A stretch of DNA of 13,840 nucleotides from an uncultured Gammaproteobacteria bacterium. Its GTDB lineage: Bacteria > Patescibacteriota > Patescibacteriia > CAYYDP01. The notes under the pieces were generated by a model, which did not search any database, was not told the origin of the DNA, and worked only from the letters and a program-made list of their open reading frames with translations. Numbering within the stretch: the stretch's first letter is position 1; every line of letters starts with the position of its first letter. The position numbers and the translations under genes were made by a program. Of this stretch, positions 1,660 to 13,840 are shown piece after piece. The stretch lies in the NCBI GenBank assembly GCA_964470645.1, contig CAYYDP010000033.1:1-13840 (forward strand), in the 5' to 3' direction.

Positions 1660-3024
1660 TTATCTCCACTTTGAAAACACCGCTCCCGCTCCCAACCCCT
1701 CCTCAATCCTCAAAAGCTGATTGTACTTAGCGACGCGATCAGTTCGAGAAAGCGAACCCGTTTTAATCTGTCCACACCCCAACCCAACCACAAAATCCGC
1801 GATGGTCGTGTCTTCGGTTTCCCCTGACCGGTGAGAAATGATCGATGTGTATTTCGCATCGTTTGCCATCTTGATGCAATCAATCGTTTCGGTCACTGTC
1901 CCAATTTGATTGAGCTTCACCAAAATCGAATTGCAAATCTTCTGATCAATTCCCATTTTCAAACGCTTCGGATTTGTCACAAATAAATCATCACCAACGA
2001 GCTGAGTTTTATCACCCAACGTTTCAGTCAATAATCGATACCCCTCCCAATCATCCTCCGAGAGTCCATCTTCAATGGAAACAATTGGGTACTTTTCGCA
2101 CCACGACGCGTACACACCGACCAACTCTTCTGATGATAACACTTTTCCCTCAATCTCAAGATGATACTTCCCGTCCTTATAAAGCTCCGTTGCGGCAACA
2201 TCAAGCGCCAACGAAATATCCTTTCCCGGTTCATATCCAGCCGATCGAATCGCCTCCAAAATCACCTCAACAGCGGCTTCGTTCGCACCGAGTGCTGGAG
2301 CATACCCACCCTCATCCCCAACCGACGTTGAAAACCCCTTCTTCGCGAGAATTTTTTTGAGTGCATGAAATGTTTCTGCTCCATACCGCAAGGCTTCCCG
2401 AAAACTTGCAGCCCCGTGCGGAACAATCATAAACTCCTGGAAATCTGTTGATCCAGCCGCGTGCTTGCCGCCATTCAACACGTTCATCAAAGGCACGGGC
2501 ATGATGTACCTTCCCTGACTTTCTCCCTCCCTTAAGGTAAGGGAGGGTTGGGGAGAGTTATGCTCTGCTGAGCCCATAACCCCCTCAGTCCCCCTTACCT
2601 TAAGGGGGAGGTATAAATCACGAAAATATTCATACAACGTTTTCTTCTCACAAAGAGCCGCTGCCTTGCTAAACGCCATGGAAACCCCAAGAAGCGCGTT
2701 TGCGCCCAACGCTCCCTTGTTCTCAGTACCATCAAGCGCAATAAGCGCGGCGTCAAGATCTCGTTGATCAAACGATTTTCTTGTCATGGATTGAGCAATG
2801 GTAGTACGCACATTCTCAACCGCCTTCAAAACCCCTTTCCCACCATAGCGTTTCGAATCGCCATCTCGAAGTTCAACCGCTTCATGACTCCCCGTGGAAG
2901 CCCCCGAAGGGACCGCTGCCCTCCCAAATGCGCCGTTTTCAAGCTCGACTTCGACTTCGACCGTTGGATTTCCGCGAGAATCAAGAATTTCTCTTGCGTG
3001 TATAGATTTGATTGTATGTTGCAT
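1660..3024 (-). CDS. eno: Enolase (phosphopyruvate hydratase) carrying an in-frame insertion of about 29 aa
   Basis: N-terminal [19 protein letters not shown] and SGASTG, central [12 protein letters not shown] and [11 protein letters not shown]-terminal [18 protein letters not shown] and [22 protein letters not shown]. The protein is 454 aa against about 425-432 aa for typical enolases. The extra residues map to the palindromic element at 2508-2612. Confidence 0.95.
2508..2612. mobile_element. Short palindromic MITE-like element (RPE-like), copy 1, inserted in-frame within eno
   Basis: Left hairpin 2525-2547 (ccctccctta-agg-taagggaggg, 10-bp perfect stem). Right hairpin 2589-2609 (tccccctta-cct-taaggggga, 9-bp perfect stem). 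The two ends are near reverse complements of each other. The core shares gagttatgc and cataacccc with the second copy at 13549-13698. The hairpin-to-hairpin span is 87 nt, or 29 codons, and is read through without a stop in the eno frame. Confidence 0.55.
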
Positions 3025-3194
3025 AGATATTCATGTCATCCTGAGCCTGTCGAAGGATTTCATTAATGTAATAGTTCGACGGGCTCACCATGACAAGTTT
3101 TATTGCCCCTTTAGACTACCGAACAATCACAAAAACCACAAGGGACAGATAACCTGAGTTGCCTTTTGTATTTATTGTTACATGTTACGTGTTC

Positions 3195-3227
3195 CCCGCC
3201 TCGCCGAAGACGACGAGTCGAGGCGGG
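3195..3227. repeat. GC-rich intergenic hairpin repeat, copy A (cccgcctcg-N15-cgaggcggg)
   Basis: A 9-bp perfect stem in an AT-rich intergenic region. It is related to copies at 4038-4071 and 4127-4150, which share cctgcctcgccgaa.acga..gtc..ggcggg. It is flanked by the imperfect direct repeats catgttacgtg (3182-3192) and catgtctcgtg (3228-3238). Confidence 0.4.
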
Positions 3228-3281
3228 CATGTCTCGTGATTTTGACTTGTCCACATTGCGAAATTTTTTTTGAGTGCTAGT

Positions 3282-3356
3282 GTGAAAGGTATGCCAGGTA
3301 GTGAAAATTCGGCTGTTTGCTATCTGGAGTGAAAAGTTGACGAACTACAGTGAAAA
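3282..3356. promoter_or_regulatory. Four direct repeats of (A)GTGAAAA in the eno / kinase divergent intergenic region (candidate transcription-factor sites)
   Basis: gtgaaag at 3282, then gtgaaaa at 3301, 3329 and 3350, with spacings of 19, 28 and 21 nt. Confidence 0.25.
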
Positions 3357-3390
3357 TCTAGGAATAATTCATGGAACGGACGATTCGAAT

Positions 3391-4037: not shown

Positions 4038-4071
4038 CCTGCCTCGCCGAACACGAGTCATGGCGGGCGGG
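4038..4071. repeat. GC-rich intergenic hairpin repeat, copy B (degenerate)
   Basis: cctgcctcgccgaacacgagtcatggcgggcggg aligns to copy A with a 3-nt gap and a few substitutions. Confidence 0.35.
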
Positions 4072-4126
4072 ATCCAAACAAAAAAACCAAAAAATCTGTT
4101 TGTGTTATTTTTTACTTTTTGGATTT

Positions 4127-4150
4127 CCTGCCTCGCTGGCAACGGGCGGC
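4127..4150. repeat. GC-rich intergenic repeat, copy C (partial)
   Basis: cctgcctcgctggcaacgggcggc shares the 10-nt cctgcctcgc with copy B and the ggcgg tail. Confidence 0.25.
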
Positions 4151-4387
4151 TAAAACTTACCTTTGTCATTCCACACTTTGATGTGGAATCCAGAAACAAA
4201 AAACAAACAAAAAAGAGAGGCGCTCAGTATAAGGTTTGAACAATGCGCGTTGGCATCATTCGACAACACCTTACACCAAGCCACCTCTCGCCCTAACAGC
4301 TAATCGGAACCATCAAACCCGCAGAAAATCCTCTCCGCGGATTCTTCCGACTTTCAAACCCCGGGCAGAGGTTTGAGAAAATTGAAG

Positions 4388-5563: not shown

Positions 5564-5791
5564 AGGAACTCTCCTAAATGAAAAAGTGAGAAACGTGAAA
5601 CATAAATTGGAAAAACATCTATCGAAGAATCCCGCGAGAGAACCGCGGGAATTGAAGAAAGTTGTAAAGAACCGTTTTTTAATCGCCTCATCCTAGAAGC
5701 GATCCGTGAATTCTTTCGAACTCACGACGGCTCAACATAGCAGAAGAAGAAGAAGTCAAGCCACTTTGGGCTAAAAATGGCTAAGGTTTAA

Positions 5792-5842
5792 GAGTCCAAC
5801 CGGCAATTTGGGCGGAAATTGCCGGTTGGAGGTTATCAACAG
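5792..5842 (+). repeat. Structured direct repeat R1: 15-bp perfect hairpin followed by ggaggttatcaacag; attC-like ends
   Basis: tccaaccggcaattt-gggcgg-aaattgccggttgga, then ggttatcaacag. The 27-mer aaattgccggttggaggttatcaacag (5816-5842) recurs exactly at 6773-6799. The 5' word gagtccaaccggc recurs at 6727-6739 as gagtctaaccggc. Confidence 0.6.
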
Positions 5843-5913
5843 TAGATATCATCAAAAGATGTAATCCGGATTTAGAAAGGCTGAAATGCGATTTAAGATC
5901 GCACCGACGGCGG

Positions 5914-5942
5914 TTGACCATGGTCACCCGCTTATGTATACT
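5914..5942 (+). promoter_or_regulatory. Sigma-70-type promoter TTGACC-17-TATACT for the PIN toxin operon, overlapped by the 12-bp palindrome tgaccatggtca (5915-5926), a likely autoregulatory operator
   Basis: The -35 is at 5914-5919 and the -10 at 5937-5942, with a 17-nt spacer, about 45 nt upstream of the 5987 ATG. Confidence 0.45.
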
Positions 5943-5986
5943 TTCGTTAGAGCAATCATGATTGTATCTCAAGTTTCTACATCATT

Positions 5987-6181
5987 ATGAGTCAGGAAAT
6001 ATACAACCAGCAAAAACTTCTTACCATTACCCACGTTGTCAGACCTTGGCAGACCGCAACGCGTGCTGATGGGTCAGTTTCAGAGTCGCTACTTGAACAA
6101 TACGATCGCATTCGCGAGCGTGCGGATGTTGCCATGCGGGATACCGATCCGGTTAAGCTCATCCGCGAACAGAGAGATTAA
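5987..6181 (+). CDS. Small protein immediately upstream of the PIN toxin gene; putative antitoxin of unclassified fold
   Basis: 64 aa. Its stop at 6179-6181 lies 2 nt before the ATG at 6184 of the PIN gene. No recognisable RHH, AbrB or Phd signature, so the call rests on position and size only. Confidence 0.35.
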   Translation: MSQEIYNQQKLLTITHVVRPWQTATRADGSVSESLLEQYDRIRERADVAMRDTDPVKLIREQRD

Positions 6182-6216
6182 ATATGTAATTCTATGCTGC
6201 TTACTGTGACAGTTCT

Positions 6217-6597
6217 GTGTGGATCGCCGCGTTCATGAAAGAATCTCGCGGGGAACAAGCGGACAAACTCATTCGCGAATGTCTGGATGGGACTCATCAG
6301 CTCATTACTCCAATCATCATTCCGCTCGAAGTACTATCCGCGATGCAGCGACAGAGCCACGATATATCTCTTGCTGAAGAATCATATAACCTCATCATGT
6401 CATTGCCAAACAATGAACTCGTTGAATTGGATTTTGTAACTTCCCGCCTTGTAAAAGCAACCATTGCCGAAACAGGACTGAAAGCCAACGACGCATTTAT
6501 TCTCACGGTCTGCCGCGAATCACATTCGACGCTCGCAACGTTTGATGATGAATTATTGAATCGGGCGAAAGAAACCGGTATCGCCACGATTATGTGA
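6217..6597 (+). CDS. PIN-domain (VapC-like) toxin; the annotatable ORF starts at GTG 6217 but the conserved N-terminal Asp strand lies upstream behind a TAA at codon 2
   Basis: PIN motifs are present: ...IPLEVLSAM (Glu), GLKANDAFILTVC (Asp) and LATFDDEL (T.D.DF). Upstream in the same frame the sequence reads ATG(6184) TAA(6187) then FYAAYCDSSVWIAAF, a typical PIN beta-1 strand with the motif-1 Asp (gac) at 6208-6210. Confidence 0.7.
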   Translation: MWIAAFMKESRGEQADKLIRECLDGTHQLITPIIIPLEVLSAMQRQSHDISLAEESYNLIMSLPNNELVELDFVTSRLVKATIAETGLKANDAFILTVCRESHSTLATFDDELLNRAKETGIATIM

Positions 6598-6655
6598 AGG
6601 TGGGCAACACAACGTATTTTAATCCAAACAACTCGCAAGTCATTGAAATAGTTCG

Positions 6656-6690
6656 AAACCGCTCACTGATGGGCGGTTTTGTTTATTCAT
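6656..6690 (+). terminator. Rho-independent terminator after the PIN toxin gene
   Basis: aaaccgc-tcactgatgg-gcggttt followed by tgtttattc. Confidence 0.5.
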
Positions 6691-6726
6691 GTTTATAAAT
6701 CGCTGATAAAAATGCCTAACTTTCGA

Positions 6727-6799
6727 GAGTCTAACCGGCGCAAAACCCAAATCGTTGGGCTGTTTGCTGCCCAAATTGCCGGTTGGAGGTTATCAACAG
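6727..6799 (+). repeat. Structured direct repeat R2: a longer-loop variant of R1 with the same 3' 27-mer
   Basis: gagtctaaccggc...(inner cccaaatcgttggg)...aaattgccggttggaggttatcaacag. The stem ucuaaccggc/gccgguugga has one G-U wobble. The GGAGG lies 12 nt before ATG 6802. Confidence 0.6.
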
Positions 6800-6801
6800 A
6801 G

Positions 6802-7560
6802 ATGGTAAGATTATTTCAGAAACTGCCTATGTCGGATGACCAAACCACACAAGAGCAAACGAACAGCGTTGAGCAAGCATCGATATCACCCATTGCGGAT
6901 CCAACCACTCCGCAGGTCCCACCTCCAGTGGACGAATCGAACTCAACAATCGAGCCCCAATCTCAAACACAAGAACCGGCAGCTCCGACTGTTGAACCAA
7001 GCGAGCCGAAAGAAGAAGCGCTAGCAACGCCGCCAATCGAACAAGCACCTGCTCCGGAACAAGGAAGGGCGCAAGATGTTGCGCCCCTACAGACTGAACC
7101 CAACGTCATTATCAAAGAAGTGATTCGTGAAGTTCCGGTTGAAACAATCGTTGAGCGAATCGTAGAAAAACCCGTCGAAGTCGTTAAAGAAATCGTAAAA
7201 GAGGTCCCCGTGGATCGGGTCGTAGAAAGAATTGTTGAAAAACCGGTCGAGAAAATTATTGAAAAAGAAGTGGTTCGCGAAGTGCCAGTGTTCGATCACA
7301 GACAACACGCGGAAGAAGTAAAAAAGAAAGCGAGGATGTTGGTCGTTCCCGCAACTGCGCAACGACAGGCAAAACGCGACGTGAAGCTTGCAAAAGTTCT
7401 GGAGGAAGCGAAACGCAAAGGTAGAATTGGGAATAATGACGTGCAAATCCTCGTTGCGGTATCCGATCGCACGGCGCGAAATTACTTGGCAGAGCTTGTG
7501 AAACAAGGAAAGCTCAAAACTGTTCACCGCGGCCGCTGGGCGCATTATGTTCCTGTTTGA
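6802..7560 (+). CDS. Protein of unknown function: acidic Pro/Gln/Glu-rich N-terminus, tandem 11-residue VE(R/K)IVEKPVE-type repeats, C-terminal winged-helix HTH
   Basis: The C-terminal NNDVQILVAVSDRTARNYLAELVKQGKLKTVHRGRWAHYVPV fits the wHTH pattern (..S.RTA.RdL.eLv..G.l...G.gR...Y). The ORF is open from 6679, but 6679-6801 overlap the terminator and R2, so the ATG at 6802 preceded by GGAGG is the more likely start. An alternative ATG lies at 6829. Confidence 0.55.
   Translation: MVRLFQKLPMSDDQTTQEQTNSVEQASISPIADPTTPQVPPPVDESNSTIEPQSQTQEPAAPTVEPSEPKEEALATPPIEQAPAPEQGRAQDVAPLQTEPNVIIKEVIREVPVETIVERIVEKPVEVVKEIVKEVPVDRVVERIVEKPVEKIIEKEVVREVPVFDHRQHAEEVKKKARMLVVPATAQRQAKRDVKLAKVLEEAKRKGRIGNNDVQILVAVSDRTARNYLAELVKQGKLKTVHRGRWAHYVPV
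7111..7293 (+). repeat. In-frame tandem coding repeats of about 33 nt encoding EVPVETIVERIVEKPVEVVKEIVKEVPVDRVVERIVEKPVEKIIEKEVVREVPV
   Basis: The periodicity is visible in both DNA and protein. The spurious reverse-strand ORF 7087..7545 is an artefact of this low-complexity region. Confidence 0.6.
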
Positions 7561-7577
7561 AAAGCCCCTTCAAAAAT

Positions 7578-7904
7578 TTACACCTTCATCTCAATCCCGT
7601 GCTTCTTGATTTCCAACGTGAGCGAGGTATCATCTTTGAAATCTTTCGGATTAAAACCAAGGGGTTCGACCCTGGGCTCGGTATCCACCGTACGTTTGAG
7701 CCAGAGATATTGAAGCGCTGAAAACGCGTCTTTAAACTTTGGTGAGATAATGCAAACGTCCACGTCGCTCAACCGATTTTGCTTTCCTTTTGCGTAGGAA
7801 CCAAAAAGAATGACCCTTTGAATTGGCAATCTATCAGCTTTAAGCACGCTCACATACTCACGAATCGCGGTTTTCACTTTTTTGGGAATTGTTCTTCGAG
7901 CCAT
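7578..7904 (-). CDS. Minimal nucleotidyltransferase (MNT, Pol-beta superfamily), the HEPN-partner (MntA-like) protein
   Basis: Hallmark motif ILFGSYAKGKQNRLSDVDVCII (GS...G......SD.D). 108 aa. Its start overlaps the HEPN ORF by 31 nt. Confidence 0.85.
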   Translation of the reverse strand: MARRTIPKKVKTAIREYVSVLKADRLPIQRVILFGSYAKGKQNRLSDVDVCIISPKFKDAFSALQYLWLKRTVDTEPRVEPLGFNPKDFKDDTSLTLEIKKHGIEMKV

Positions 7905-8276
7905 AGACGTAATTGTTCAGAAATACGCAGATACTTTTTTGTATACGAAGGTGTACACAGTTTATAGAACTGATACTTTGTATCTCCATATCGACCTGCG
8001 ATATTAAAGGTCGTGATGAGGCGCAACTCCTCTTCCTGACTCTTCGTTGGCTTCAGTCCCGCTTGCTTTGCCAAATACGAAAGATCATGAATGTATGAAG
8101 CCTGGTTTACGAGTCTTAATCATGAACAACGTCTTGATCATCTTTTCAAGCGTTAAATGACAGAAAAAGAGACACGAGTCGTAATGCTTGAGCCTAAAAA
8201 GACTTTGAGCCGTTTTCCAGTTCCGTTCAGCTGATTCTTTCCAGTAATCGATTTGTTTTTGAATCGAGATAGACAT
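7874..8276 (-). pseudogene. HEPN-domain (HepT-like) toxin gene split into two ORFs (8276..8085 and 8074..7874) by a +1 or +4 frameshift near 8084-8093
   Basis: The N-terminal half (AERNWKTAQSLFRLKHYDSCLFFCHLTLEKMIKTLFMIKTRKPGFIHS*) and the other frame (..SYIHDLSYLAKQAGLKPT...NIAGRYGDTKYQFY...) together reconstruct the HEPN consensus ..QAaEKalKAll...g..p.tHDL..L. On the reverse strand the H codon (8093-8091) and D codon (8086-8084) are separated by the 4 nt tcat. Confidence 0.6.
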
Positions 8277-8416
8277 TGACCGTAATTATAGAGTAAAAAA
8301 ACCATGTCAATGAAATCAAAGCGGAAACGTGATATGATGATAATAATAGAGATCTCTCACGTTTGCCTGTTTAATTTGAAGATTGCTTCGTCGCATCCGA
8401 CCCCGGTAGTAGAAAC

Positions 8417-10564
8417 GTGCGTTTCACTACGGGGCAGACTTACCTCGCAATGACACTTTTAATTATGCTATCTCCATCATCGCCTGTCACATCCCTCTCT
8501 ACCATCGCGAAGAAACTTGAAAAAGTCTTGAGCAAGATTGAGGTGAAAACCGTTGAAGATCTGCTTCATCACTATCCTTCACGATATGTGGATCTTTCGA
8601 ATATCACACCCATCAATAAACTCGTTCCGGGTGTATTGACCACCATCAAAGGCGAGGTTATTTCCATTGAAGATATTCGATCGCAATGGAAACGGATGTT
8701 CATCACGAAAGCCATTGTAAAAGACGAAACGGGGGTATTGGAGTGCGTTTGGTTTCATCAACGGTTTTTAACAAAAGTAATCAAACCGGGCGACATGCTA
8801 TTACTCTCGGGCAAGCCAGAACTTTCAAAAACCGGTTTACAAATTACACACCCTGAATACGAAAAGATATCAGAAGACAAAACGCCCATCCACGGAGCGC
8901 GGATTGTTCCGATCTATCCTCTCACGGAACGGCTTACGCAAAAACAACTTCGTTTCTTGATCAAGATTGCTTTGGGAAAAACTTCCATTCCCGAATGGCT
9001 GCCATCGAGTATATTGAAAGCCTATAACCTCATTCCTCTAAAAACCGCGCTCAATGCGATTCATTTTCCAACAAATCAGAAGATCTTATCTGCAGCAGAG
9101 CACCGACTCAAGTTTGATGAATTATTCTCGTTGCAACTCCGAAACTCTCTCGCGAGAAAAGAGCTCGCCCAACTTCAAGCCCCATCAATCGGGTTTCACG
9201 AACAAGAAACGAAGACATTTGTTGACTCTCTACCGTTTGAACTCACCAAGACTCAAAAACAATCAGCGTGGGAGATTATCAAAGATATTCAAAAACCTCA
9301 TCCAATGAATCGACTGCTCCATGGTGATGTTGGAAGCGGAAAAACGGTTGTCTCAAGCATTCCCGTGTTCAATGCCATGCTTTCAGGATTTCAGGTTGCC
9401 TATATGGCTCCAACGGAAATTCTCGCAGAGCAGCAGTTTAAGACATTTTGTCGGTTGTTTGAGAAGCATGGGTTCACGATTGGATTGATCACATCGTCAG
9501 GAGTATCGAGATTCCAAGAATCAAGTATTAAGTATAAAGAATCAAGGAACGAATTTCTCAATGCGATACAAAAAGGAGAAATCAATCTCATCATTGGCAC
9601 TCACTCGCTTATTCAAAAAGACGTTGAATTTAAAAATCTCGGTTTGGTTGTGGTTGACGAACAACATCGTTTTGGCGTCAGACAAAGACAGGCTCTACTA
9701 AGACCTTCACACCTTCACACCTTCACACCTTCACACACGATTCCCCATTTTCTTTCCATGACCGCAACCCCCATCCCTCGTACACTCGCGCTTACGGTGT
9801 ATGGCGATTTGGATATTTCAGCAATCACAGAAATGCCGCGGAGCCGCAAGTCAATCATCACCAAATTCATTCCTCGCGAAAAACGAAACGAACTCTATGC
9901 TCACGTCGCAGAAGAACTCTCAAAAGGACGACAAGTATTCATTGTATGTCCACTCATTGATCCCTCTGATATACTCGGTGTAAAGTCAGCAACCGAAGAG
10001 GTCAACAAAATCAAAACAACCTTTTCAGACTTCAACATCGCGATTCTCCACGGAAAACAAAAAGCTGAAGCGAAAAATAAGATCATGAAAGAGTTCCAGG
10101 AGCGCAAACATCATATCCTTGTCTCAACACCAGTCGTGGAAGTGGGGATCGACATCCCGAATGCCTCCATCATGATTATTGAAAGCGCGGAGCGGTTCGG
10201 ACTTGCCCAACTCCATCAACTTCGCGGCCGCGTTGGCAGAGGAGAACACCAATCGTACTGTTACCTGCTTTCCGATTCAGAGTCTGACGCAACAAAACAA
10301 CGTCTTAGCGCCGTGATTGGTTCAACCTCTGGACTGGCACTCGCTGAAAAAGACCTGGAGCTCAGAGGCCCGGGAGACGCGTACGGAACCAAACAATCAG
10401 GGTATGAAGACACGCTCTATATCGCCCGACTTACGGATTTCCCCATTATCAAAGAAGCACGACATGCCGCGGAACAGCTTGTGACAGAAGACCCAATGTT
10501 ATCAAAATGGAGCGCAGTCAAACTCAGGGTAGAAGAAATGGAGCGGAAGATTCACCTGGAATAG
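8417..10564 (+). CDS. recG: ATP-dependent DNA helicase RecG
   Basis: Wedge domain at the N-terminus. Helicase motifs GDVGSGKT, VVDEQHRFGV, MTATPIPRTL and QLHQLRGRVGRG. TRG-type C-terminus. The frame opens at GTG 8417, but the more likely starts are ATG 8450 or 8465 (MTLLIMLSPSSPVTSLSTIAKKLEKV...). Confidence 0.9.
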   Translation: MRFTTGQTYLAMTLLIMLSPSSPVTSLSTIAKKLEKVLSKIEVKTVEDLLHHYPSRYVDLSNITPINKLVPGVLTTIKGEVISIEDIRSQWKRMFITKAIVKDETGVLECVWFHQRFLTKVIKPGDMLLLSGKPELSKTGLQITHPEYEKISEDKTPIHGARIVPIYPLTERLTQKQLRFLIKIALGKTSIPEWLPSSILKAYNLIPLKTALNAIHFPTNQKILSAAEHRLKFDELFSLQLRNSLARKELAQLQAPSIGFHEQETKTFVDSLPFELTKTQKQSAWEIIKDIQKPHPMNRLLHGDVGSGKTVVSSIPVFNAMLSGFQVAYMAPTEILAEQQFKTFCRLFEKHGFTIGLITSSGVSRFQESSIKYKESRNEFLNAIQKGEINLIIGTHSLIQKDVEFKNLGLVVVDEQHRFGVRQRQALLRPSHLHTFTPSHTIPHFLSMTATPIPRTLALTVYGDLDISAITEMPRSRKSIITKFIPREKRNELYAHVAEELSKGRQVFIVCPLIDPSDILGVKSATEEVNKIKTTFSDFNIAILHGKQKAEAKNKIMKEFQERKHHILVSTPVVEVGIDIPNASIMIIESAERFGLAQLHQLRGRVGRGEHQSYCYLLSDSESDATKQRLSAVIGSTSGLALAEKDLELRGPGDAYGTKQSGYEDTLYIARLTDFPIIKEARHAAEQLVTEDPMLSKWSAVKLRVEEMERKIHLE
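9704..9735 (+). repeat. Tandem octamer (ccttcaca)x4 inside recG, encoding PSHLHTFTPSHT between helicase motifs II and III
   Basis: Four contiguous perfect copies read directly from the sequence. Confidence 0.7.
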
Positions 10565-11590: not shown

Positions 11591-12862
11591 TTATCTCAAT
11601 TGGATCTTCATCACCTTCCCAACGCTTCCATCCACAAAATACAATTCGGATCCATCAGGAGAAAGCGATAGTTGTTCAACCGGGATCCTTCTCCCATCTT
11701 CCGTAACAGGCTCAGCAACAAGCTGGGTTGATCCGGTTTCCAGATTTACCTCATAGATACTCGCTTCCCGCGGGTTAAAAAGCTCAGGATACAATCCCGT
11801 CCCGGGAGGAAGACTGTCCTGAACGGAACAATACGCCTTTGTGCCGTCCGGGTTCATAGCGCACGAATCAATCGAGGTGGATAGCCCCAATGGGGTATTG
11901 TTGAGACCAATCGAGTCCCCTCGAGCATCAACAATCCACAACGTCGGGTTGTAATTATTTTCCGGCGTGCTCACGCTATACAACAGCCTCTGTCCATCGG
12001 GCGTCCACTCGCCCTTAAACCCAATACCCTGCACTACCATCGATTTGAAATTTTCATCTTGTTGTCCGATAAAAATAATCTCTTCTGATGAAACGCCTGC
12101 CGATTTCCTGTACAACCCCACCACGCTTCCATCCGGAGAATACGTAGGCTGAACGCGATCCGCTTGATCTCCAATCGGCTCAATGGCACGCGCCTCGGAA
12201 CCATCCGGAGTACCCATCACCAAGAAACTGCGCTCGGGATCTGGGGAAACAAAATTGAACACGACATTGTCCGAATCCCCTTGAAACACGAAATCTTGTC
12301 CTCCCCGCGGAAGACTGACGCGTTCATTCGTTACAAAATCAACCATTACACCCGTTCCATCAGGAAAACTCAAAAGAGCTCGATCTCCTGATTTGTCCCA
12401 AACGACCCGCTCTGCTGAAGGAAACCGGTCGCGAATAAGTTCAACCCGCTCACCGCCCGATGTCATCCGGTACAATACACCGGTATTAGGCTCGTAGTAC
12501 GAAAACCCAGAAGTTGAGTTTCCCGTGTATGACCTGACCGAATCTTTGGTTACCGGAGATACAAGTGTTTTACCACCATTTGCAACCGTATCAACCGGAA
12601 TCTCACCGGTATCCCCGCCAAAAACACCGTTCACATTGGGCAAGAACCCCCTACCTCCACCCGTCTGTCGGTTCGCGTTAAACCCAGCACCGGTTCCAGG
12701 AAGACCGCCAATAGCCCCTGGGGTGTTCATGTTTTCGTTCATCTGGGGCTGAATCTCCACTGCGGGTTTCAAAAAATACACAACCACCAGCGCCATTGCG
12801 CCGAGAAAAAATAGGATCAAAACGATAAAAATGATTCGATTTTTGGTGAAGAGCATAGTCAA
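11591..12862 (-). CDS. Membrane-anchored PD40/TolB-like beta-propeller protein
   Basis: N-terminal TM helix, a Gly-rich linker, then repeated SPDG/PDG blades (YSPDGSVVGLY, WTPDGQRLLYS, MNPDGTKAYCS, LSPDGSELYFV). The ORF begins at TTG 12862. The ATG at 12856 (MLFTKNRIIF...) is the more likely start. Confidence 0.7.
   Translation of the reverse strand: MTMLFTKNRIIFIVLILFFLGAMALVVVYFLKPAVEIQPQMNENMNTPGAIGGLPGTGAGFNANRQTGGGRGFLPNVNGVFGGDTGEIPVDTVANGGKTLVSPVTKDSVRSYTGNSTSGFSYYEPNTGVLYRMTSGGERVELIRDRFPSAERVVWDKSGDRALLSFPDGTGVMVDFVTNERVSLPRGGQDFVFQGDSDNVVFNFVSPDPERSFLVMGTPDGSEARAIEPIGDQADRVQPTYSPDGSVVGLYRKSAGVSSEEIIFIGQQDENFKSMVVQGIGFKGEWTPDGQRLLYSVSTPENNYNPTLWIVDARGDSIGLNNTPLGLSTSIDSCAMNPDGTKAYCSVQDSLPPGTGLYPELFNPREASIYEVNLETGSTQLVAEPVTEDGRRIPVEQLSLSPDGSELYFVDGSVGKVMKIQLR
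12831..12858. repeat. 28-bp direct repeat DR-a (atgattcgatttttggtgaagagcatag), which encodes the TolB-like N-terminus on the reverse strand and abuts the RelE stop
   Basis: It matches 13457-13484 at 26/28 positions. A third, partial copy at 13729-13748 matches 18/20. Confidence 0.6.
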
Positions 12863-13113
12863 CGATATACACGATGATCGCCAATATCAACAAACTCGGC
12901 TGTTCCTGATACGAATGTAAACAACACCCGATGACTGTGTGTGACAGAGAACGACCAAAATCCAGAGAGCCTTCCGCCCAGTTTGTGCGTCGAGAGTTTT
13001 GGATCAAACGGATCAAGCCTAAAGAGATTCATACGTTCTTCAAACTCTTGTTGGATTTCGATCGGGAGCTTACCCAACGACCGAATGAAGCGACTAGAAT
13101 ACGCAATCTCCAT
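12859..13113 (-). CDS. Type II toxin of the RelE/ParE superfamily
   Basis: 84 aa with ...HKLGGRLSGFWSFSVTHSHRVLFTFVS..AEFVDIGDHRVY, the ParE/RelE C-terminal signature (kL.G.l.g.we.r....yRi.Y......i.il.igHR..vY). Its stop overlaps the start region of the TolB-like gene. Confidence 0.8.
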   Translation of the reverse strand: MEIAYSSRFIRSLGKLPIEIQQEFEERMNLFRLDPFDPKLSTHKLGGRLSGFWSFSVTHSHRVLFTFVSGTAEFVDIGDHRVYR

Positions 13114-13116
13114 ACA

Positions 13117-13413
13117 TTACTCACTTTTTGCATTGACTACTTGATCAAGTTGTTTTGCCTCATCACGAAGTTCTAAAAATCCCTTGTTGCCCAACGTTCG
13201 AAGCAACCCCGCATCTCGCTCACGCTCAAACTCAGCGACAGCTTCCAACGCCCGTTCTTCCGCATCCGACTCATACGTCACGGTATGAACTGGACGAACA
13301 ACAAGTGTATCACCAAACATAATGGCGACGACGTCATCGGATCGAAACGCTTCCGCCCACTCGCGGGGGAGCGTCAATGTTCGCTCTTTGATGGTGAGAG
13401 GAAGATAGGTCAT
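13117..13413 (-). CDS. Antitoxin with an N-terminal AbrB/MazE-type (SpoVT-AbrB swapped-hairpin) domain
   Basis: LTLPREWAEAFRSDDVVAIMFGDTLVVRPV matches the .tiPke.re.lgl.eGd.v.i...g..li..P. pattern. An acidic C-terminal tail follows. The stop lies 3 nt upstream of the RelE start. Confidence 0.7.
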   Translation of the reverse strand: MTYLPLTIKERTLTLPREWAEAFRSDDVVAIMFGDTLVVRPVHTVTYESDAEERALEAVAEFERERDAGLLRTLGNKGFLELRDEAKQLDQVVNAKSE

Positions 13414-13421
13414 ATATGGCG

Positions 13422-13450
13422 ACTATATCATGTTCATACCAATACGTCAA
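13422..13450 (-). promoter_or_regulatory. Sigma-70-type promoter TTGACG-17-TATAGT for the RelE/AbrB operon, implying a leaderless or near-leaderless antitoxin mRNA
   Basis: Reverse strand: -35 is the reverse complement of 13445-13450, and -10 is the reverse complement of 13422-13427. The antitoxin ATG (13413) lies 8 nt after the -10. Confidence 0.45.
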
Positions 13451-13456
13451 AAAAAT

Positions 13457-13484
13457 ATGATTCGGTTTTTGGTGAAGAGTATAG
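13457..13484. repeat. 28-bp direct repeat DR-b (atgattcggtttttggtgaagagtatag), a relic of the TolB-like 5' end with ATG changed to ATA
   Basis: See 12831-12858. It sits 6 nt upstream of the -35 of the RelE/AbrB operon promoter. Confidence 0.6.
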
Positions 13485-13548
13485 ATGAAACCAATTTCTA
13501 ATTCCTAATTTCTAAGTAATCTGTCATTGCGAGGCTTGGCGAAGCAAT

Positions 13549-13698
13549 CTTCCGTCCTTTTTCCTCCTCTTAAGGTAAGAGGAGGCTAGGAGGAGTTATG
13601 CCTTCAACGCACTCAATGTTACTTTATCGATCATTAACATTTGCCGTTCCACACTTCATAACCCCCCTTTCATCCCCTCTTATCTTAAGAGGGGAAAG
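13549..13698. mobile_element. Short palindromic MITE-like element, copy 2 (longer core), intergenic
   Basis: Left hairpin 13563-13585 (cctcctctta-agg-taagaggagg). Right hairpin 13673-13695 (tcccctctta-tct-taagagggga). The core shares gagttatgc and cataacccc with copy 1. The left flank cttccgtcctttttcct matches cttccctgactttct of copy 1. Confidence 0.5.
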
Positions 13699-13840
13699 TA
13701 CCTCAACAATTTTCTCTTTATTTCCCATTTCGATTGTTGGTGAAGAACGCAGTACTCAAATGATACACAAACATTAATACGCTAGTTTATATGTTCCAGG
13801 ATTTGCTGTATCAGGTATTAAACATGTATCATTTAACGAA

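Follow-up and report, generated by a model that had tools for sequence, protein, structure and literature searches.

The stretch of DNA analysed here (13,840 nt, referred to as the window) carries a small operon of the toxin-antitoxin (TA) type between two related direct repeats, R1 and R2, the second of which lies immediately before a conserved protein gene. Further TA modules and repeats are present elsewhere in the window. The features discussed below are the following:

4065–4215, plus strand: single-copy linker, counterpart of the triplicated linker of the relative L015 (local alignment score 74)
5772–5842, plus strand: R1, putative orphan upstream leader copy (full-length alignment to the single L015 copy, 78 nt, 78%)
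5795–5830, plus strand: hairpin of R1 (fold z = -5.9; minus-strand BLAST match to L015)
5843–6706, plus strand: probable insertion, a complete vapBC-like operon including its promoter and terminator (absent from the orthologous L015 site)
5914–5942, plus strand: TA promoter TTGACC-17-TATACT (10/12 match)
5987–6181, plus strand: putative 64-aa antitoxin gene (a conserved 63-aa counterpart precedes the L013 PIN gene)
6195–6597, plus strand: VapC-like PIN toxin gene, frameshifted (Pfam PIN 1.3e-15; DNA comparison with homologs)
6654–6690, plus strand: intrinsic terminator that ends the TA operon (a 25-nt part is 84% conserved in L013)
6707–6799, plus strand: R2, putative downstream leader copy before the next gene (covariance-model score 71 bits)
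6802–7560, plus strand: conserved downstream gene, to which the leader normally would belong (the hairpin also precedes each ortholog in L015 and L017-L020)
12827–13484, minus strand: second TA module, YoeB/RelE-like (repeat families D2/D8; repeat copies 29/32 identical)
13729–13753, minus strand: third, degenerate copy (21/25) of the PD40 5'-end repeat (family D2)

Results

The 27-mer AAATTGCCGGTTGGAGGTTATCAACAG on which the original prediction was built occurs exactly at 5816-5842 and 6773-6799 and at no third site of the window (0 of 200 shuffles gave any match). The repeats containing it are real, although their extent had been drawn too short: the homology covers 5772-5842 and 6707-6799, from TAAAAATG (5772 and 6707) up to CAACAG (5842 and 6799), and amounts to a duplication of approximately 71/93 nt. 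The right parts are identical (27/27), the left parts agree at 27 of 33 positions, and the centres are unrelated (11 nt in R1 versus 33 nt in R2, a 22-nt insertion in the R2 alignment). Folding into a palindrome, which had been claimed for both repeats, applies to R1 with its perfect 15-bp stem (arms 5795-5809 and 5816-5830, loop GGGCGG; z = -5.9) and not to R2 (z = -1.6, 11/200 shuffles), of which only the outer 11-bp stem (6730-6740 and 6777-6787) matches R1. R2 retains the ancestral ...GCCC before the right arm, and its centre contains a degenerate partial copy of this arm (CCCAAATCGTTGGG versus CCCAAATTGCCGGTTGG).

R1, scoring 81 bits in the covariance model, contains a -10-like TAAAAAT, the hairpin, GGAGG and TTATCAACAG, and is not followed by an ORF. 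Its downstream flank has no homology to leader or gene (1112 of 2000 shuffles score as high), and a candidate extension of the homology into the gene start (CATCAAAA...TGTAAT) was rejected as not significant by the same count. The downstream flank of R2, in contrast, is orthologous to L015 (0/2000 shuffles). The terminator scan called neither repeat; the stem is followed by AGGTTATC. The Rfam scan (E <= 1), a collection of which attC models are not part, returned no match at R1 or R2. A dif/Xer-like identity of the 27-mer was also dropped, as by eye only TTAT resembles the XerD arm of the consensus.

The operon between the repeats had been described as a self-contained unit, and most of its parts were recovered. 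The promoter (TTGACC-17-TATACT) includes over its -35 box the perfect palindrome TGACCATGGTCA (5915-5926), which is likely the operator of the putative antitoxin. The small upstream ORF was confirmed with 64 aa and has no Pfam or NCBIfam match; the product of the second gene contains a PIN domain, and a homolog of it (P0126) matches NCBIfam VapC at 1.2e-8, which is below the curated cut-off. A small antitoxin gene thus precedes a PIN toxin gene in one operon, the arrangement of VapBC systems, and the unit ends in the predicted terminator, a 12-bp stem (6654-6681) followed by a T-run. The junction of 2 nt between the two genes was wrong, the toxin ATG (6195) being located 13 nt past the antitoxin stop. 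Homologous TA modules (76% aa identity) occur in unrelated contexts in L012 and L013, and the PIN/TA family was not found among the viral contigs searched.

The PIN gene exhibits a 1-nt deletion in codon 5 (about position 6207). It starts with ATG CTG CTT ACT GT-GAC AGT TCT GTG TGG, compared with ATG CTT CTC ACG ATC GAC AGT TCC GTG TGG in the homologs, whose intact products begin MLLTIDSSVWIAAF. The ATG at 6195 is therefore out of frame with DSSVWIAAF, and the intact frame with its N-terminal catalytic Asp is missing; the NCBI annotation lists a 120-aa PIN remnant (P0124) without the first catalytic Asp. Judged from this comparison, the toxin gene is a probable pseudogene, or the frameshift could be an assembly error. 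A nonsense mutation at codon 2 (ATG TAA) was rejected as a candidate, because the homologs place the start at 6195 and reveal the frameshift.

The relative L015 provides the comparison for the site as a whole. Its gene order is enolase, a 192-aa gene, a variable region, the ortholog of the gene following R2, and recG, and it has one copy of the element (9886-9967) directly 5' of this ortholog, passing from the lone leader copy straight into the gene without a TA unit. The original view of the TA operon as a discrete unit, inserted with the repeats as its boundaries, is thus supported by a relative that has only one repeat at the corresponding position. The L015 27-mer agrees with that of the window at 26/27 positions, the lone change being compensated across the stem. 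R1 aligns with L015 over its full length plus approximately 20 nt upstream; the right part of R2 aligns and runs on into the gene (0/2000 shuffles). Positions 5795-5827 of R1 also match L015 9951-9919 on the minus strand (94% identical by BLAST), and the R1 loop GGGCGG is the reverse complement of the L015 loop CCGCCC. Counted on the alignment, R1 and R2 each differ from L015 at 11/33 positions and have 7 states in common that differ from L015, and from the aligned sequences R1 and R2 are sister copies. Homologs of the SPFH gene were at most 60% identical and not syntenic.

The hairpin is also kept before a more distant ortholog in L017-L020, with two further compensated pairs, and is not recognisable before the more distant orthologs of L016 and L021/L022. 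In L017, the element lies between co-directional genes, its first base one base into the TAA stop of the upstream gene, with outer arms AAGGGG...CCCCTT in place of the R-box-like ends. Across the copies, pair 15-62 is C-G, A-U or G-C and pair 16-61 is C-G or G-C; the outer stem sequence is fully replaced (CTAAACG / TCCAACCG / AAGGGG) with its complementarity kept, a T-G wobble is present in two copies, and the inner half-sites are the best-conserved part across three lineages. Overall, 90% of the alignment cells are paired, the observed values being reached by 11-13 of 500 shuffles, and these covariation statistics are weak given that the element occurs in only three independent lineages. Searched with the covariance model, 121 kb of related DNA yielded only leader copies and none dispersed, and a scan of 596 Gb of genomes and a metagenome set for the 20-mer core returned only chance coding matches, one in a Cytophagales gene (KKIAGWRLKAM) and one unrelated.

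The product of the downstream gene has a Pro/Glu-rich N-terminus, VEKPVE-type repeats and a winged-helix-like C-terminus, in which a DeoR-like HTH gives weak Pfam matches (0.005). R2 is considered the leader of this gene because its GGAGG is followed by ATG 6802 or by ATG 6829, the start supported by homology. The start annotated by NCBI (ATG 6712) falls inside R2.

Repeats also bound other TA modules. The YoeB/RelE-like module is flanked by 32-nt copies of the 5' end of a PD40 gene: copy 1 (12858-12827) comprises the start codon and the first 9 codons of this gene, and copy 2 (13484-13453) is followed by a promoter (TTGACG-17-TATAGT, 13450-13422), a 98-aa ORF (13413-13117) and the 84-aa toxin (13113-12859; Pfam YoeB 0.003, TIGR02116 1.6e-5). 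In L015, three copies of a linker flank a HicBA and a PIN module, and the window contains this linker once (score 74 versus a shuffle mean of 23.8, 0/2000); by this alignment, 4065-4215 is the empty site for the L015 insertions. The two different TA families of L015 have a common 5' region of 120-165 nt including the promoter. The third TA module of the window, MNT/HEPN (7561-8416), is an insertion relative to L015 and has no flanking direct repeats (1334/2000), which means that the repeat-bounded pattern is not universal.

A palindromic, MITE-like element (13557-13697) lies between the second and third PD40 repeat copies. The same palindromic repeat family occurs elsewhere in the contig at 2519-2605.

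Discussion

The comparison with relatives suggests that R1 and R2 are most probably the duplicated leader of a gene, flanking a vapBC-like insertion of approximately 860 nt. The ancestral element would have been a leader of approximately 70 nt (a -10-like TAAAAAT, a 15-bp stem-loop and GGAGG-TTATCAACAG) belonging to the 6802/6829-7560 gene. The vapBC-type operon (approximately 860 nt) would have inserted just past this leader and left it on both sides, so that R1 would keep the ancestral upstream junction and now be an orphan, and R2 would keep the downstream junction and serve the gene. The right-hand 27 nt would have remained identical because this stretch evolves slowly (26/27 even between species), while the left part would have drifted (6/33), the loop region would have been remodelled in both copies, and the toxin would later have been knocked out by the frameshift.

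As origin of the duplication, we favour a non-site-specific insertion that would have duplicated its target, through filling-in at a staggered break or through template switching during replication at the palindrome. Possible footprints of template switching are the inverted loop and perfected stem (T to C) of R1 and the partial right-arm copy in the centre of R2. The repeats of this lineage point to a duplicated target sequence rather than a common recombination site, because the second module of the window and the TA array of L015 have boundary repeats that are unrelated, non-palindromic and specific to their locus. To our knowledge, a duplication of 70-90 nt far exceeds that of any transposase, which counts against target duplication. 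The arrays of three copies (family D8 in the window and the L015 linker) indicate that one short site was reused or amplified, which also fits site-directed integration, and an identical 27-mer beside diverged flanks likewise resembles an attL/attR core.

The main alternative is a Campbell-type event by host homologous recombination, which we regard as possible, although on the unlikely side. A small TA circle with a homologous but diverged leader copy, popped out of a related strain, would have entered by a single crossover in the 27-mer, R1 being resident and the left part and centre of R2 coming from the donor. This would account for a fully identical 27-mer next to sequence that is 18% diverged and a centre that is unrelated, does not need a dedicated enzyme, and would produce locus-specific repeats of variable length at every locus; repeat-flanked units would in addition be able to pop out and re-enter orthologous loci. 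On the other hand, a stretch of 27 nt does not exceed the minimal efficient processing segment of RecA, which is about 23-27 bp in E. coli. In B. subtilis it is >40 bp (PMC4824099). The origin of the first repeat-flanked copy is moreover left unexplained, and the symmetric divergence of R1 and R2 from L015 fits drift in situ equally well.

A cassette mobilised in trans, namely a non-autonomous IS200/IS605-type PATE or an Xer/dif-like module integrating site-specifically at the leader hairpin with the 27-mer as crossover core, appears improbable. The identical 27-nt core beside diverged arms is attL/attR-like, the two hairpins point the same way on one strand, the three-copy arrays at two other loci suggest the reuse of one site, and the two L015 TA families have a promoter-bearing 5' region of 120-165 nt in common. 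However, the three repeat families share neither sequence nor structure, so that one recombinase cannot explain all of them, and the search for transposases and recombinases found none in the 13.8 kb of the window or the 13 kb of L015. In relatives, the element occurs once and is tied to the gene, the identity of the 27-mer is accounted for by its slow evolution (26/27 to L015), the two repeat-bounded modules of the window have neither terminal inverted repeats nor common ends, and the TA family is absent from the viral contigs. As to a PATE in particular, the hairpins are direct copies, and tnpA and tnpB were not found in the window.

It is very unlikely that the repeats belong to a REP/MITE-like dispersed family or that the contig is a chimera assembled across the 27-mer: the contig is metagenome-assembled and harbours another palindromic repeat family, but further copies were found neither in 121 kb of related DNA nor in the large collections, so that the many copies at unrelated intergenic sites typical of REP/BIME elements are missing, and the position relative to the ortholog is conserved. 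The 27-nt repeat is also shorter than the usual final assembly k-mers, and both junctions agree with L015, which speaks against a chimera.

Least credible of all is the integron cassette originally proposed, with R1 and R2 as attC sites of a small CALIN array and an integrase encoded elsewhere moving the TA operon. TA operons are classic cassettes of chromosomal integrons; the two structured direct repeats are 957 nt apart on the strand of the genes, relatives differ in the presence of the unit precisely at the repeat, and the outer motifs GTCCAAC (5794-5800), GTCTAAC and GTTGGAG are all found in the sequence. The first two fit R'' (RYYYAAC) and the third fits R' (GTTRRRY) with one mismatch, as would any palindrome with the ends CCAAC...GTTGG. 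attC sites are characterised by L''/L' boxes, an unpaired central spacer and extrahelical bases (PMC4889954). R1 and R2 resemble the attC sites of CALIN elements (Cury et al. 2016, PMC4889954) in being direct-orientation palindromes of unequal length around a TA unit, and differ from them in the absence of L boxes: folds of both strands gave for R1 an uninterrupted 15-bp helix without bulges, spacer or the extrahelical bases sought, with only 38 nt from R'' to R', less than an attC requires, and for R2 a continuous 11-bp outer stem without L boxes or spacer. Instead of conservation confined to the boxes and a cassette boundary in R' (G|TT), the identity extends 11 nt past the supposed R' box and the homology approximately 23 nt 5' of R''. 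Within the window, neither a nearby integrase nor at least two bona fide attC sites within 4 kb were found; intI is missing, and the scan of 25 ORFs returned neither a Phage_integrase nor any other recombinase domain. Integrons are absent from very small genomes (PMC4889954), and the names of the homologs found here point to Patescibacteria. The other TA modules of the lineage are bounded by unrelated, non-palindromic repeats, and in two other, cassette-less lineages the element occurs once, as leader before the ortholog. In relatives, the repeat is a conserved single-copy gene leader, the kind of ordinary site unrelated to cassettes that the original prediction had itself named as the counter-case to an attC or VCR-like repeat.

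Regarding the function of the hairpin, we favour a 5'-UTR RNA stem-loop that would partly cover the GGAGG. Alternatively, the palindrome may be a DNA operator, GCAATTT-N6-AAATTGC, bound by the downstream winged-helix protein in an autoregulatory manner, in which case R1 would extend this control to the TA region or the divergent SPFH promoter. We see this as a tentative second option. It is consistent with the perfect inverted repeat, its halves 6 nt apart, that immediately precedes a gene whose product ends in a DeoR-like HTH, and with the strong conservation of the inner half-sites across three lineages, and half-sites bound by a dimer would likewise co-vary. In contrast, the outer stem changes completely and yet stays complementary, which is not required of an operator, the T-G wobble of two copies is tolerated only on the plus strand as RNA, and the L017 element starts one base into the TAA stop of an upstream co-directional gene. 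The preferred RNA stem-loop has parallels in known 5'-UTR elements that mask the Shine-Dalgarno sequence or stabilise mRNA: the stem covaries, and its 3' arm reaches into GGAGG, 12 nt before the ATG. Unlike these, the element matches no Rfam family, and the start codon of its gene is ambiguous (6802 versus 6829).

The duplicated leader has partial counterparts in other systems. Islands bounded by attL/attR, e.g. at the 3' ends of tRNA genes, also combine an identical core with imperfect arms, and their gene-side copy rebuilds the end of the target gene, as R2 and PD40 copy 1 do for the 5' region. In contrast to such islands, the insert here is below 1 kb and without integrase, the 5' ends or leaders of protein genes are targeted, and the repeat differs at each locus. 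Long target duplications by staggered integration are known from the CRISPR repeats duplicated by Cas1-Cas2 and, with variable length, from elements using target-primed reverse transcription (TPRT). Both resemble the present case in duplicating tens of nt around an insert and in forming arrays when a site is duplicated repeatedly, and differ in that cas genes, reverse transcriptase and poly-A tail are missing here, the duplications measure between 18 and about 90 nt, and what is inserted is an operon equipped with a promoter. With type II VapBC, the operon shares the palindrome promoter, the order of small gene, PIN gene and terminator, and modules in unrelated contexts; unlike there, the toxin frame is broken at codon 5 and the antitoxin matches no described family. 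A search of the literature on repeat-flanked TA modules and on TA systems in Patescibacteria returned nothing specific.

These findings remove a false integron call, as a palindrome fitting the attC core is a conserved gene leader. The stem-loop before an uncharacterised winged-helix/VEKPVE-repeat gene next to recG is, moreover, a new candidate cis-regulatory element. TA modules of this poorly known lineage appear as self-contained units from promoter to terminator, with copies of the local sequence on their borders at three independent loci, and reciprocal occupied and empty TA sites are documented here for it. We speculate, while regarding it as doubtful, that promoter-bearing TA operons may spread in these small, probably patescibacterial genomes as minimal cassettes without a recombinase, with each insertion leaving or exploiting a 20-90-nt duplication from the 5' region of the gene behind it; such locus-specific direct repeats would then permit pop-out circles, re-integration at orthologous sites and tandem accretion by host functions only. 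The footprints are also compatible with ordinary insertion and duplication events. If true, this proposal would explain the three repeat-bounded TA sites and represent a general route of TA mobility without mobile-element genes. How TA operons move without mobility genes is still poorly understood, and the footprints described here make this question testable.

Results

The PIN toxin-antitoxin operon and its flanking repeats

Scans and Pfam confirmed the original prediction that the unit between the two repeat copies R1 and R2 consists of a promoter with a palindrome, a small ORF, a PIN toxin gene and a terminator. The features of this toxin-antitoxin (TA) operon, in window positions, are as follows.

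5914-5942, plus strand: promoter TTGACC-17-TATACT, overlapping a perfect palindrome
5915-5926, plus strand: perfect palindrome TGACCATGGTCA, within the promoter region
5987-6181, plus strand: 64-aa ORF in the antitoxin position
From ATG 6195, plus strand: PIN-domain gene (Pfam 1.3e-15)
6654-6681, plus strand: terminator, followed by a T-run

The proposed 2-nt junction between antitoxin and toxin was wrong, as homologs place the toxin start at ATG 6195. The intact PIN homologs P0125 and P0126 (76% identical) start with MLLTIDSSVWIAAF, and the window gene reads ATG(6195) CTG CTT ACT GT-GAC AGT TCT GTG TGG, a 1-nt deletion in codon 5; the NCBI annotation (P0124) is a 120-aa remnant without the first catalytic Asp. 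Because of this deletion, the PIN toxin is probably dead unless the deletion is an assembly error. At two other loci (L012 and L013), homologous modules keep the promoter-antitoxin-PIN-terminator order in unrelated contexts in which the R element is absent; what moves is therefore the TA module, and the repeat is a property of the target.

The 27-mer AAATTGCCGGTTGGAGGTTATCAACAG reported as common to both repeats is exact and occurs at exactly two sites, 5816-5842 and 6773-6799, with any match in 0/200 shuffles. The extents of 51 and 73 nt were too short, as the homology begins at TAAAAATG (5772 and 6707); R1 and R2 are identical at 27/33 positions in the left part and 27/27 in the right part, around unrelated centres of 11 and 33 nt. 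Both repeats had been described as folding, and this is true of R1, which forms an unbroken 15-bp stem (5795-5809 / 5816-5830) with the loop GGGCGG (z = -5.9); it is not true of R2, whose overall fold is no better than shuffles (z = -1.6) and which has only an 11-bp outer stem (6730-6740 / 6777-6787) in common with R1. The observation is thus real, with these corrections. Rfam gave no match at R1 or R2, and the repeat core was found neither in 596 Gb of representative genomes nor in a metagenome collection, chance matches in a Cytophagales coding gene aside.

The repeat is a conserved leader of the downstream gene

The gene after R2 has its closest homolog, P0128 (51-56% amino acid identity), on a syntenic contig of a relative, L015, with the order enolase, 192-aa gene (88% DNA identity), variable region, ortholog and recG. 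A single copy of the element is found there at 9886-9967, directly 5' of the ortholog (...GGCTAAAATTGAACATTTTTTAAAAGGCTAAACGGCAATTTCCGCCCAAATTGCCGTTTGGAGGTTATCAACAGGGATGGTA...). The L015 27-mer is identical at 26/27 positions: T replaces G once in the right arm, with A in place of C at the matching left-arm position. All of R1 can be aligned with this copy; for R2 the alignment covers the right part and runs on into the gene. The flank downstream of R2 is orthologous to L015 (0/2000 shuffles), and that downstream of R1 is not (1112/2000 shuffles).

At four loci with a more distant ortholog (L017-L020, ~54% amino acid identity), a hairpin AAGGGGCATTTT-CGCCCG-AAATTGCCCCTT lies just 5' of the gene and begins one base inside the TAA with which the preceding gene, of the same orientation, ends. 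In an alignment of four sequences, 90% of cells are compatible with the pairing, with one pair in three forms (C-G, A-U, G-C) and another in two. This covariation, reached by 11 to 13 of 500 shuffles, supports a conserved stem in three lineages in a suggestive, not conclusive, manner. With a covariance model made from the aligned sequences, no further copies turned up in the 121 kb that cover the window and related loci. Given the single copy before the orthologs and the lack of others in the 121 kb, the R element is a gene-specific, conserved, structured leader, duplicated in the window only.

Insertion and scars

In the window, the leader has been duplicated, a TA operon inserted and the toxin frame broken. 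The ancestral upstream flank is followed by R1 (5772-5842), the insert (5843-6706), R2 (6707-6799) and the ancestral downstream flank with the gene. The view of the TA unit as a discrete insertion bounded by repeats was upheld by L015, which has a single leader copy without a TA unit at the orthologous site and so represents the empty site.

Counted on the alignment, R1 and R2 have seven states in common that differ from L015, and 6/33 positions of the left part differ between them; therefore the duplication arose within the window lineage and not recently. Between species, the left part changes about eight times faster than the 27-mer (11/33 versus 1/27), so that the 27/27 identity of the latter requires no special mechanism. 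The R1 loop GGGCGG (5810-5815) is the exact reverse complement of the L015 loop CCGCCC (9934-9939), and the L017 loop (CGCCCG) and R2 (…GCCC) are similarly C-rich, as in the L015 orientation. A T to C change perfected the R1 stem by removing a T-G wobble. Loop inversion and a perfected stem in this orphan copy are the classic footprint of template switching (quasi-palindrome correction). R2 has a 22-nt insertion in which part of the right arm recurs in degenerate form.

Other TA insertions

A second repeat-bounded TA module lies on the minus strand beside a PD40 gene.

13413-12859, minus strand: YoeB/RelE-like TA pair with its own promoter TTGACG-17-TATAGT
12827-13753, minus strand: whole locus, with 32-nt direct repeats (29/32 identical) flanking the pair
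268 nt further upstream, minus strand: third, degenerate copy of the repeat (21/25), with a palindromic element in between

The downstream 32-nt copy corresponds to the 5' end of the PD40 gene, its start codon plus first nine codons; the orphan copy upstream now has ATA in place of the ATG. The PD40 start codon lies 2 nt past the toxin stop, and the gene is therefore probably no longer preceded by a promoter and Shine-Dalgarno sequence of its own.

In L015, HicBA and PIN modules (1700-3360) form a tandem array with three linker copies between them (core TTTTGCATCCCTCCGAAG). The linker is single in the window (4065-4215) without any TA module (0/2000 shuffles), as the leader is in L015, so that the two contigs are mutual empty sites. 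HicBA and PIN, which belong to different TA families, have a common 120-165-nt upstream region with the promoter CATTGACTTT…TTATACT, which suggests either that a unit was duplicated and its cargo then replaced, or that both were built on one cassette backbone.

An MntA/HEPN module (7561-8416), the third TA module of the window, lies between the downstream gene and recG and is an insertion relative to L015, which has only 95 nt there.

7578-7904: MntA-like nucleotidyltransferase
8085-8276: ORF with the N-terminal half of the HEPN gene
7874-8074: ORF with the C-terminal half of the HEPN gene

With its HEPN gene split into two ORFs, it is a second window insertion with a broken toxin. No flanking repeats were found around it, and the repeat-bounded pattern is therefore frequent, not universal.

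Other palindromic elements were also observed. A MITE-like one (…CCCTCCCTTAAGGTAAGGGAGGG…GTTATGC…CATAACCCCC…CCCCCTTACCTTAAGGGGGAGG…) lies in frame in enolase (2505-2625; gene 1660-3024, minus strand), adds ~34 residues (138-171) absent from all PDB enolases and has a longer copy near the contig end (13557-13697); it resembles Rickettsia palindromic elements, which enter genes in frame. A hairpin family TGTCA(T/C)CC(T/C)GAGC…TCGA(A/G)GGA(T/C) occurs in the window (3030-3173, 4163-4214) and L015 (1190-1220, 3308-3340 and, in recG, 11989-12064), with a weak Rfam match to AaHKsRNA41 (29 bits versus a gathering score of 97). The L015 recG, 19 aa longer than that of the window, contains a related inverted repeat, which may be another in-frame palindromic insertion.

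Discussion

The duplication would have arisen at TA insertion. We rank first a target duplication that is not site-specific, by staggered-break fill-in or replication template-switching, because each locus has repeats of its own and both R1 and R2 bear scars of template switching. In second place is a Campbell-type single crossover with a circle that brought in a diverged copy of the leader: it neatly accounts for a perfect core next to diverged arms, but 27 nt does not exceed the efficient segment for RecA (PMC4824099), and the origin of the first copy is left unexplained. A dedicated trans-acting cassette recombinase ranks third, as the three repeat families have no sequence or structure in common, with a hairpin in R only, which speaks against one site-specific recombinase and in favour of local target sequence having been duplicated; no recombinase domain was found in the 25 window ORFs scanned. 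Three-copy arrays could reflect a hot spot that was used repeatedly, or unequal crossing-over between flanking repeats.

The interpretation of the repeats as attC sites of an integron or CALIN array is rejected. An attC site has R and L boxes, an unpaired central spacer, extrahelical bases and a variable terminal structure, and very small genomes are without integrons (PMC4889954). Only the R-box resemblance holds, and any CCAAC...GTTGG palindrome would be expected to show it; in relatives the element is a gene leader. A REP-like element was ruled out by the lack of dispersal in the 121 kb searched and a terminator by the lack of a T-run; nothing pointed to mobilisation of the IS200/IS605 type. 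Most similar in kind are the attL/attR repeats of islands that restore the end of the gene they target, and long target duplications from staggered integration.

We favour a 5'-UTR RNA stem-loop as the function of the hairpin, because the outer stem remains complementary despite sequence change, two copies of the element show U-G wobble pairing on the plus strand, and the 3' arm shares bases with GGAGG, which lies 12 nt ahead of ATG 6802. A serious alternative is that the palindrome is an operator for the winged-helix protein of the downstream gene. Start candidates for this gene are ATG 6712 (NCBI; inside R2, 282 aa), ATG 6802 and ATG 6829, and orthologs align from ATG 6829 (MSDDQ / MLEDQ). 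The L015 ATG that corresponds to 6802 lies 35 nt upstream and in a different frame from the gene, a hint of a short upstream ORF or an indel.

The homologs of this gene carry names that point to Patescibacteria, and the window, a complete NCBI contig of 13,840 bp, carries housekeeping genes (M29 peptidase, enolase, P-loop protein, SPFH protein, recG, DsbA-like protein, PD40 protein). The event itself is of an ordinary kind, in that a TA operon entered a variable region. The long, locus-specific target duplications at three loci are a modest twist, and the leader stem-loop is a small new candidate cis-element.
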